This document shows positions 17,306 through 63,860 of a stretch of 64,000 nt of DNA, in pieces (within the stretch, counting starts at the first letter, position 1; each line of letters opens with the position of its first letter). Both the position numbers and the translations under genes were made by a program. The stretch lies in IMG/VR virus record IMGVR_UViG_3300025066_000007; one strand, written 5' to 3'. A model generated the notes under the pieces. The model ran no database searches, had not been told where the DNA came from, and was given only the letters and a program-made list of their open reading frames with translations. This DNA is from a virus (Duplodnaviria; Caudoviricetes).

Positions 17306-18271
17306 TCAATTTAATTCTTGCAGAAAATGATATCGATAAGTGTCATATATTATCTGCTCAATCACTTTCCTATCTGATTCTTCCGGAAGAGAGCTTGTTG
17401 CGACTGCGGCAGTTACGCTCTTAAGCCTGCTTTCGATTTCTTCAGAAATTTCCTCAACAGAAACTTCTCCTTTGCGAACTCTCAGAAGATAATCAGCTTC
17501 CTTTAAGGGAAGGGTAATAGAGCCTGTCTCTAATAGCTCGATTGCTTCGCCGGAGATTCTAAGCGCGTGCATCATAGCTTTATAGTCTGCTCCACTAGCT
17601 TCTGCCGCCGCCTGTGAACGACGACCATACCTCTCACATAAAGGAGTTAGGGTGCTATCAATGCAATATCCAAAAGTAGTGGTTACGGGCATATATCTGC
17701 CGCAAACCATTAGGGCAGGAGCTTTCTTTCCAGACTTCTTATTAAGAATCACGTCAGTAAGCTCAACGTGCTTTCTCTCAGCAAGATGTGCGAGGTCGTC
17801 TAAGTGTTCCGATAGCCTTGCATCAGAGGGCATAGACCGGAACAAACCAAGCACAGCCTTTGCATCGTTCATTCGGTCGCCCTTCAAAGAATATTTGGAA
17901 GCTTGAGATTTACAATATCCAACCATAGCGTGAACCTTTTTGTTCAAGATATGCGGCCGAAGCTCCAAGACTCTCTCCCAAACAGGAGAGGATTCTAGCC
18001 AAAATTCCTTTGGAGTAAAAAGCATATCTAAAGCATTTGTTTGCCCGGCCATACAAAGCTCTAAGAATCTACCAAACTCTATTGACTCTACATCAATATC
18101 TTCAGAAGAATTCTTCCCTGAGCTAGTGGCTGAAGACATAATCCTTTTAGTTTTAAAGAGAAATATGTCACGAGGATCTGGCAGGAAAACTTCTTTATAG
18201 TCCGTGTCGGAAGATGGAAGATTCGTTCCATAGACCTTGCTTCCAAAGAGCATCTTAACTATCGTCTTCAT
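17306..18271 (-). CDS. Pol-beta-superfamily nucleotidyltransferase (RlaP/NrdC.11-like)
   Basis: FGSKVYGTNLPSSDTDYKEVF and YKAMMHALRI motifs. Confidence 0.8.
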   Translation of the reverse strand: MKTIVKMLFGSKVYGTNLPSSDTDYKEVFLPDPRDIFLFKTKRIMSSATSSGKNSSEDIDVESIEFGRFLELCMAGQTNALDMLFTPKEFWLESSPVWERVLELRPHILNKKVHAMVGYCKSQASKYSLKGDRMNDAKAVLGLFRSMPSDARLSEHLDDLAHLAERKHVELTDVILNKKSGKKAPALMVCGRYMPVTTTFGYCIDSTLTPLCERYGRRSQAAAEASGADYKAMMHALRISGEAIELLETGSITLPLKEADYLLRVRKGEVSVEEISEEIESRLKSVTAAVATSSLPEESDRKVIEQIIYDTYRYHFLQELN

Positions 18272-58487: not shown

Positions 58488-58801
58488 TGGTACGAGTGGT
58501 GGGACTCGAACCCACACGTCCTAAGGACAATTGATTTTGCATACCACTATAGCTTTCACTACCACCGAAGTGTTTGTAGTCTGGACTTTCTCTTCACCAT
58601 ATTGCTAATGCAATTTAGGTGGCAGCCGTCAAGTCTCTACACGTTCAGTCTAATTACTTAGAAAGCTTCGCTCGGGATTGCCATTTTAAAGGGTTCCCCG
58701 AATTTGACTGCTTACATCCATACCGTTTCCAGTATGACGACCCATTTTTCTAGAAAACTAGAAGCCAAGTCAATCGCGTCTACCAATTCCGCCACGCTCG
58801 C
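58488..58801 (-). tRNA. tRNA-Leu(CAA), type II, split by a group I intron (exons 58768-58801 and 58488-58539)
   Basis: Spliced 86 nt: GCGAGCG TG GCGGAATTGGTAGACGC G ATTGA CT|CAA AA TCAAT, V-arm GTCC-TTA-GGAC, GTGGG TTCGAGT CCCAC, A73, CCA. Confidence 0.88.
58540..58767 (-). ncRNA. Group I intron (228 nt, IC3/tRNA-intron-like, no ORF)
   Basis: P AAUUCGGGGAA, Q AAUCCCGAGC, R GUAGAGACUUGA, S AAGAGAAAGUCC; P3 GCAGUC/GGCUGC; P2 GAAA loop; P8; P9 UUCG and GAAA loops; terminal G. Confidence 0.9.
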
Positions 58802-58867: not shown

Positions 58868-58955
58868 TGGCGGGCCCGGTAAGATTCGAACTTACGATGC
58901 GGTATAACCAAATAGGTTAACAGCCTATTGCCTTCGACCACTCGGCCACAGACCC
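58868..58955 (-). tRNA. tRNA-Asn(GUU) with a long variable arm
   Basis: 88 nt; ATAGG CT GTT AA CCTAT; V-arm TGGT-TAT-ACCG; GTAAG TTCGAAT CTTAC; G73; CCA. Confidence 0.88.
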
Positions 58956-63134: not shown

Positions 63135-63860
63135 CTATCTAATCAAATATTGATTGACATATTTAGTATCTTTGCTGAAGATAGGAGTCTCCGGATCCTC
63201 TTCCCAGCGAGTCCTCTGCGCTCCATTCTTTTCATACGAAGTCTTTACGATTGCAGAGCCACGCTTCTTCCAAGTGGCAATGTCATTCCAATTGACAGGA
63301 GGGTTTAGGCTCATCAACATATCCTGCTTATCTGACCCATTCATTCCATGCAACTCTTTATGCGAGAAATATGCCTGAGCTAAGCCTGTAATGCTATTTT
63401 TCTCTGCATCACGCTGGCGCCAAAGAAACACATTGTTAACTTCATCTGAAGTAATGTTCCAGAAACGAGCATCAAAATATGCCGGGGGCGAACTTATCAC
63501 TCCAAAATTTCTTCGCCATGCAGCAGCAAAAGCAACGGAAGCAATCGAAGCGGAAACACTACACATCTTCTGAACTCTATAGCCAAACCATGCATCTGTA
63601 TTATAAGTCTTCCAGTCAGTTAGCAGAAGAGTTATTTCGTCTGATTGAGTATAGCCAATTTGACAGCCCTGAATTTGTCCGCAGAGAGCAACTGTTGCTG
63701 CAACCATACACTTGTGAAAATTTTCATCAAAAGGCCTATCAAGATTGCGAGTAAGTGTATGAAAGGCTTTGCCGTCAAGTCTCGCTATGACTGGAAGTTT
63801 TCGCTGCAACATAAAGTTACTGCGACTCTCATAATCTTTCATTCTATCGCCAATATTCAT
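63135..63860 (-). CDS. tRNA-His guanylyltransferase / Thg1-like 3'-5' polymerase
   Basis: RLDGKAFH, YTQSDEITL, RVQKMCSVSAS, FDAR, WRQRDA, WNDIATWKKRG. Confidence 0.92.
   Translation of the reverse strand: MNIGDRMKDYESRSNFMLQRKLPVIARLDGKAFHTLTRNLDRPFDENFHKCMVAATVALCGQIQGCQIGYTQSDEITLLLTDWKTYNTDAWFGYRVQKMCSVSASIASVAFAAAWRRNFGVISSPPAYFDARFWNITSDEVNNVFLWRQRDAEKNSITGLAQAYFSHKELHGMNGSDKQDMLMSLNPPVNWNDIATWKKRGSAIVKTSYEKNGAQRTRWEEDPETPIFSKDTKYVNQYLIR

Follow-up and report, generated by a model that had tools for sequence, protein, structure and literature searches.

The tRNA-Leu gene described here is interrupted within its anticodon loop, which raises the questions of whether the interruption is a working self-splicing intron, where exactly it is excised, and how unusual such a gene is in a phage. 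The gene lies in a stretch of 64,000 nucleotides (the window) belonging to a 211-kb IMG/VR virus record that is estimated to be 63% complete. ARAGORN in its default setting, with introns off, missed the gene, but with introns allowed it reported tRNA-Leu(caa) at c[58488,58801] with a 228-nt intron after gene position 34, which is U33 of the tRNA. The Rfam model RF00028 (Intron_gpI) matched positions 58564-58772(-) over its whole length (model 1-253 of 253) with 54.7 bits (E = 3.9e-11), which is 4.7 bits over the gathering score of 50, and a search of the whole 211-kb record gave the same result. No open reading frame of homing-endonuclease size was found in the intron, the only ORFs overlapping it being spurious ones of 44-63 codons on the other strand; the endonuclease gene expected of a mobile intron is thus absent from it. 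These observations confirmed that 58488-58801 is a tRNA-Leu gene split in the anticodon loop by an ORF-less group I intron. The features of the gene and the intron are collected in Table 1.

Table 1. Features of the interrupted tRNA-Leu(CAA) gene and its intron. Positions are those of the window; A2 is the alignment of 47 viral tRNA introns described in the text.
Feature	Position	Strand	Sequence or pairing	Evidence
Interrupted tRNA-Leu(CAA) gene, 314 nt	58488..58801	(-)	CCA encoded at 58488-58490	ARAGORN, introns allowed
5' exon, 34 nt	58768..58801	(-)	From 58801: acceptor 5' strand GCGAGCG, UG, D arm GCGGAAUUGGUAGACGC, anticodon-stem 5' strand AUUGA, C32, U33	
Group I intron, 228 nt	58540..58767	(-)	First base U58767, last base omega-G58540	Rfam RF00028, ARAGORN boundaries
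3' exon, 52 nt	58488..58539	(-)	CAAAA (beginning C34 A35 A36), 3' anticodon-stem strand UCAAU, long variable arm, T arm, acceptor 3' strand, A73, encoded CCA	
P1	58768-58772 and 58738-58742	(-)	Exon UGACU (58772-58768) with guide GGUCG (58742-58738)	
P1 extension hairpin	58748..58763	(-)	UUCUAG-UUUU-CUAGAA	6/6 pairs
Internal guide sequence	58738..58744	(-)	UG-GGUCG	G58742 in invariant column of A2
P2, 7 bp	58719..58736	(-)	GAAA tetraloop at 58726-58729	Pairing and covariation
P3, 5' strand	58706..58711	(-)	GCAGUC, partner 58622-58627	6 pairs with compensatory changes
P4 around P5	58672..58701	(-)	P4 UCGGGG/UCCCGA (58696-58701 with 58672-58677); P5 58691-58692 with 58681-58682	
P6 (3 bp) and P6a hairpin	58641..58671	(-)	GUAA loop	
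J6/7 and P7, 5' strand	58632..58640	(-)	GUAGAGACU; guanosine-binding helix with bulged A	A2 invariant columns
P3, 3' strand	58622..58627	(-)	GGCUGC	Pairing and covariation
P8 and P8a hairpin	58595..58621	(-)	P8 CACC/GGUG	
P7, 3' strand	58583..58587	(-)	AGUCC, pseudoknot with 58632-58636	
P9 around P9a and P9b	58543..58580	(-)	P9 ACUAC (58576-58580) with GUGGU (58543-58547); P9a with UUCG loop; P9b with GAAA loop (58554-58557)	

Analysis of the intron fold showed that P1, P2, P3, P4, P5, P6, P6a, P7, P8, P8a, P9, P9a and P9b are each 100% paired. The P3/P7 pseudoknot and the conserved core helices P3-P9 that define a group I intron are present, as are the U58768.G58742 wobble in P1 and the terminal guanosine, G58540, which is preceded by AU after P9. 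Guide positions 58738-58741 pair with exon positions 58769-58772, so that U33 (58768) and G58742 form the U.G pair of the splice site, and P10 is formed by G58743 and U58744 with C34 and A35 at the start of the 3' exon. When the exons were joined as CU↓CAA (arrows mark splice sites), the product folded as an 86-nt type II tRNA-Leu(CAA) with a 7-nt loop, A73 and CCA. Our analysis therefore agrees with the first-pass annotation of this DNA in its coordinates, strand, length and anatomy, to which the ARAGORN call is identical, and the group I model search that it had proposed as a check was positive over the full model. It was also right that the core is complete, that the intron has no ORF and ends in G, that it is inserted after U33 with a P1 of UGACU/GGUCG containing the U.G pair, and that the anticodon CAA is formed only by splicing.

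We then asked whether these features are those of a family under selection. A search of IMG/VR with a pattern derived from the conserved 3' end of the intron retrieved more than 120 loci, and 90 of the 123 pattern matches fell inside tRNA genes. An alignment of 47 viral tRNA introns (A2; the window intron and 46 relatives) was folded with RNAalifold, which recovered P2, P3, P4, P5, P6, P8, P9 and P9b and showed compensatory double changes in 29 of its 38 pairs; the covarying columns for P9 and P9b were 232-237 with 281-285 and 266-270 with 275-279, respectively. P7 is invariant in A2 and so provides no covariation information. Conservation in the other 46 sequences reaches 90% or more at 84 columns, and the window intron has the consensus base at every one of them (84/84). 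Together with the covarying helices, this suggests that the window intron is a working member of a selected family and not a relic. The opposite possibility, a relic intron that has decayed inside a pseudogene yielding no mature tRNA, could draw on the Rfam score, which is barely over the cut-off, on the lack of a homing endonuclease to maintain the element, and on a mismatch in the acceptor stem of the mature tRNA (C6.A67, alongside a G1.U72 pair). However, introns of about 200 nt without an ORF are the norm in this family, all helices are fully paired with the GAAA tetraloops kept in L2 and L9b, and the exons retain the D arm, T loop, A73 and CCA. Given this and the complete agreement at conserved positions, we regard decay as very unlikely.

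The position of the splice junction required closer consideration. The 3' site is fixed, since the 3' end typical of the family, ...GUAGUGAAAGCUAUAGUGGUAUG, has G58540 as its last base, and the next base, C, is the first of the 3' exon. For the 5' site the sequence offers two candidates, namely the bond 3' of U33 (58768) and that 3' of the following U (58767). The junction CU↓CAA is favoured over a cut one base later, because the invariant guide column of A2 corresponds to G58742 and the flanking pairs (C32-G58741, A31-U, G30-C and U29.G) set U33 opposite this base, and because P1 and P10 abut on the guide exactly at CU↓CA. The relatives point the same way. Among 70-odd non-identical relatives inserted after U33, the equivalent of G58743 is nearly always G and faces N34, which is C or U. 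Most of these relatives begin their intron with C, and so do 9 of the 24 bacterial Leu(CAA) relatives and the majority of the Leu(UAA) relatives in this class; with C in that place, U33 is the only possible U-1. The first-pass annotation had noted an extra G in the guide and had taken it to leave an 8-nt loop open. The G is real (GGGUCG, 58738-58743), but the most fitting role of G58743 is to pair with C34 in P10 and, before the first step, with the first intron base; that it is kept as G in nearly all relatives of the class argues for CU↓CAA and against the longer loop.

A cut after U58767, used wholly or partly, would give the 8-nt loop CUUCAAAA and hence a defective tRNA or a quadruplet/+1 frameshift decoder. 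The first intron base of the window is U, which can wobble with G58743 directly above U33.G58742 and thereby place two stacked U.G pairs atop P1, so that the 5' splice site is not fixed by the sequence alone; in addition, ARAGORN still folds the product with the 8-nt loop as tRNA-like, with the anticodon 'tcaa'. No P10 can form in that register, however, as C34 would face U58744, and the invariant guide G aligns with G58742 and not with G58743. Relatives with C or A as their first intron base and the same guide can be cut only after U33, and a 7-nt loop results in all other members of the class. We therefore consider the later cut very improbable. Less probable still is that a minority of transcripts is spliced in this way, so that a single gene would supply a ribozyme-made quadruplet/+1-frameshift decoder beside the normal tRNA-Leu(CAA).

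With CU↓CAA as the preferred junction, the intron could be compared with described classes. A recent preprint extended the four classic types of bacterial tRNA introns to 21 (Williams, 2020; bioRxiv 10.1101/2020.01.27.920355), and its seed alignment includes an intron named Eba21.Leu.2Ug, with the P1 GGACU↓C...GGGUCC. The window intron lies between positions 33 and 34 of a tRNA-Leu, has U-1 and omega-G, leaves a 7-nt loop composed of exon bases, and aligns throughout with viral and bacterial Leu.2U introns; judged by these features, it is of the Leu.2Ug insertion type. The four classic IC3 tRNA introns of the same seed alignment are closely similar to it, from which we infer that it belongs to subgroup IC3. 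Leu.2Ug and the alphaproteobacterial Leu(CAA) introns (e.g., L245, L262, L270 and L287) resemble it in the tRNA family, the insertion point (CU↓...g↓NAAAA), the guide G-GGUC, U-1, omega-G, an IC3-like core and the lack of an ORF, and their length of 217-254 nt is similar. Unlike the bacterial CAA copies, with which it shares only 65-76% identity, the window intron is phage-borne.

The classic tRNA-Leu(UAA) intron (Kuhsel et al., 1990, as cited in PMC3984707), termed Leu.3Ug, interrupts the same tRNA family with the same ribozyme architecture and an aligned guide G, and the window intron is clearly homologous to its viral copies, with up to 79% identity over 221 nt. The classic site is 34/35, whereas the window intron is inserted one nucleotide upstream, at 33/34: its 5' exon ends in U33 and C34 follows directly after omega-G, in place of an insertion between U34 and A35 of UAA. 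The wobble base belongs to the 3' exon and is C in place of U; P1 is moved by one position along the exon, and P10 consists of CA/UG, where the classic intron has AAA/UUU. The cyanobacterial tRNA-fMet intron (Biniszkiewicz et al., 1994), named fMet.2Ug in Williams (2020), and the viral tRNA-Met(CAU) introns L044, L060 and L123 share the insertion after U33 and the P1/P10 target ...ACU↓CA..., and their guide, AAUG-GGUC, is almost identical to that of the window intron. They differ in that the window tRNA has A36 and not U36 and is a type II tRNA, and in that some fMet introns carry a homing endonuclease, which the window intron does not. The shared target and the near-identical guide make transposition between tRNA-Met(CAU) and tRNA-Leu(CAA) conceivable. 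The Azoarcus intron is likewise compact (about 200 nt, with P2-P9 only), has GAAA tetraloops in L2 and L9, and is very similar in the sequences of J3/4, P4, P7 and J8/7; however, it is inserted after position 36 and not 33, and it lacks the P9a of the window intron, whose P1 extension hairpin is also longer.

The first-pass annotation had considered a Leu(CAA) host in a phage to be uncommon. We scanned one genome per prokaryotic species with a class-specific pattern, and obtained 96 loci. These comprised 31 tRNA-Leu(UAA) genes and at least 24 tRNA-Leu(CAA) genes with CU↓...G↓CAAAA, in addition to several that ARAGORN had mis-delimited; among the alphaproteobacterial CAA loci, the mis-delimited ones were reported as Ser(cga), Lys or Cys. 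An intron-split tRNA-Leu(CAA) gene is thus present in 24 or more bacterial species, nearly all of them Alphaproteobacteria, with hosts in Rhodospirillales, Thalassobaculaceae, Stellaceae, Reyranella and Micavibrio. Among bacteria, CAA hosts are therefore not rare. When the class-specific pattern was applied to IMG/VR with the record of the window excluded, none of the 13 loci found was CAA, and the exact 3'-junction pattern CAAAATC detected no other viral contig. The window gene was the only CAA host found among viral contigs in the scans run here. Rarity thus held for the combination of phage and CAA, which was unique in these scans, and did not hold for the type itself, as Leu.2Ug had already been listed and CAA hosts are frequent in Alphaproteobacteria.

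Phylogenetic analysis of the intron cores was performed with and without bacterial sequences. In the viral-only tree of 47 cores, the window intron grouped with L178, L187 and L210, which are viral Leu(UAA) introns inserted after U33, with support of 99/89. This grouping fits a simple change of U34 to C34 in the exon, which would also improve P10 by turning a G.U pair into a G-C pair. When 46 bacterial introns were added, the bacterial CAA introns formed a clade (99/94) without the window intron, and the position of the latter collapsed. This clade comprises alphaproteobacterial genomes and metagenome-assembled genomes (L245, L262, L263, L265, L267, L270, L275, L276, L278, L282, L287 and others). 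In AU tests, trees joining the window intron to the bacterial CAA introns (p = 0.23) or to the three viral introns (p = 0.19) were not rejected.

Since intron-split tRNA-Leu(CAA) genes are common in Alphaproteobacteria, and since the window holds GroEL, a dehydrogenase and an FtsK-like gene, the contig might be bacterial DNA or a prophage border misfiled as viral, in which case the intron would be just another bacterial one. Several observations argue otherwise. The source is a virus record of 211 kb, nearly all ORFs of the window lie on one strand with many small genes of unknown function among them, and eight scattered tRNA genes were found by ARAGORN with introns allowed. PHROG matches in the window include baseplate, endolysin, DNA ligase, Thg1, SbcD-like and HNH families besides GroEL. 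Furthermore, the best matches of the intron are viral and the best tree puts it outside the well-supported bacterial CAA clade. A bacterial origin of the contig is very unlikely in our view, and the record, judged by the genes of the window, has the features of a jumbo phage. INPHARED gave no match in a megablast search with the 14 kb surrounding the gene, and tblastn with GroEL and Thg1 gave matches of at most 50% identity, in unrelated phages, and hence no close cultured relative.

The window also encodes a Thg1-like tRNA-His guanylyltransferase at 63135-63860 (-) (PHROG 4717, E = 1.5e-90) and a nucleotidyltransferase at 17306-18271 (-) (PHROG 388, E = 5.9e-78), which suggests that the phage carries its own tRNA-maturation or repair enzymes beside its tRNA genes. 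The tRNA encoded 67 nt upstream of the split gene, at 58868-58955 (-), has the anticodon GUU (Asn) but is built as a type II tRNA, with a D arm like that of Ser, Tyr or Leu tRNAs, a paired long variable arm, G73 and CCA, and its charging identity is ambiguous.

We therefore consider it very probable that the locus encodes a functional, ORF-less IC3-type group I ribozyme of the Leu.2Ug class in a type II phage tRNA-Leu, which would splice at CU↓CAA and be carried as a near-neutral passenger. This reading draws on sequence, fold, covariation, homology and splice-site logic, from which catalysis and the junction used in vivo are predicted, whereas neutrality is assumed. The chemistry of group I splicing is established for the pre-tRNA introns of Azoarcus and Anabaena (PMC3984707, PMC13168695). 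By analogy, U29-U33 of the 5' exon in the primary transcript would pair with the guide GGUCG to form P1 with its U33.G58742 wobble, and free guanosine bound in P7 would attack the bond after U33. With the 5' exon still bound to the guide, C34 and A35 would be aligned by pairing to G58743 and U58744, omega-G58540 would enter the guanosine site in place of the cofactor, and the exons would be ligated as ...GAUUGACU↓CAAAAUCAAU... (...GACU↓CAAAAUC...). The GAAA tetraloops of L2 and L9b presumably clamp the fold as in Azoarcus. The predicted product is an 86-nt tRNA-Leu with the loop CUCAAAA and the anticodon CAA, reading UUG, a codon that makes up an unremarkable 14% of Leu codons in the long ORFs of the phage. 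As U33 and C34 are joined only by ligation, a decoding-competent tRNA-Leu(CAA) would depend on the activity of the ribozyme. Nothing that we found pointed to a regulatory role of the intron. If neutrality is assumed, the intron most likely persists as a well-tolerated passenger, with efficient splicing and only rare precise loss.

The window intron is a phage-borne case of an already catalogued class and involves no new mechanism. A review from 2014 regarded group I introns in phage tRNA genes as unknown (PMC3984707), and Devoto et al. (2019) stated that introns of any kind had yet to be reported from phage tRNAs, those that they found themselves not being of group I (PMC6784885). In the open-access literature we found no description of a group I intron in a phage tRNA or in tRNA-Leu(CAA) beyond the class list of Williams. 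The setting itself is nevertheless less uncommon than the first-pass annotation had supposed, since related introns occur in numerous phage tRNA genes in IMG/VR. They are frequent in viral metagenomic contigs, in at least five or six isoacceptor families, and are rarely annotated because default tRNA finders skip them, which matters for counts of phage tRNAs and for the annotation of suppressor tRNAs. The window intron appears to provide a clean, compact (228 nt) and intact example of the self-splicing type in a phage tRNA gene, and to illustrate a one-nucleotide 'sliding' of the intron family within tRNA-Leu, at 33/34 versus 34/35, together with a U34-to-C34 change of the wobble base.

Introns of the same subfamily were seen in further phage tRNAs (IMG/VR L008-L127) of many isoacceptor types, for example Arg-UCU (L015, L032), Met-CAU (L044, L060), Asn-GUU (L023, L025), Thr-UGU (L058, L099) and Ser-UGA (L115). 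In L012:725-1004 the spliced anticodon would be UCA, making this tRNA a possible opal suppressor. Several tRNA-Leu(UAA) introns inserted after U33 in IMG/VR are longer, at 381-601 nt (L063, L120, L176, L192, L076, L189 and L169). No ORF of more than 59 codons and no homing endonuclease was found in them, and the added sequence seems to consist of RNA or of decayed endonuclease genes.

Distant blastn searches against cultured and uncultured phage records detected homologous cores at several places, among them Pseudoalteromonas phage pYD6-A, a crAss-like phage, and a Microcoleus phage in which the locus is annotated as a 286-nt 'tRNA-Arg'. In the 735-kb huge phage LR756501, the match is an unannotated tRNA-Leu(UAA) gene with a 205-nt group I intron at the U34/A35 site (LR756501.1, L002:391-681 (-), Rfam 56.6 bits). 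This copy and most IMG/VR copies are of the classic type, CUU↓...G↓AAAA; the LR756501.1 record is without any annotation and the huge-phage paper is silent on introns. Core matches were also found in the capsid genes of Pelagibacter phage HTVC120P and of a deep-sea relative, KM23-C739, each annotated as two 'capsid protein' CDSs. As a related group I intron sits between the paired CDSs (L003:425-607 and L004:358-538, 48.6 and 78 bits, respectively), these capsid genes are probably intron-split.
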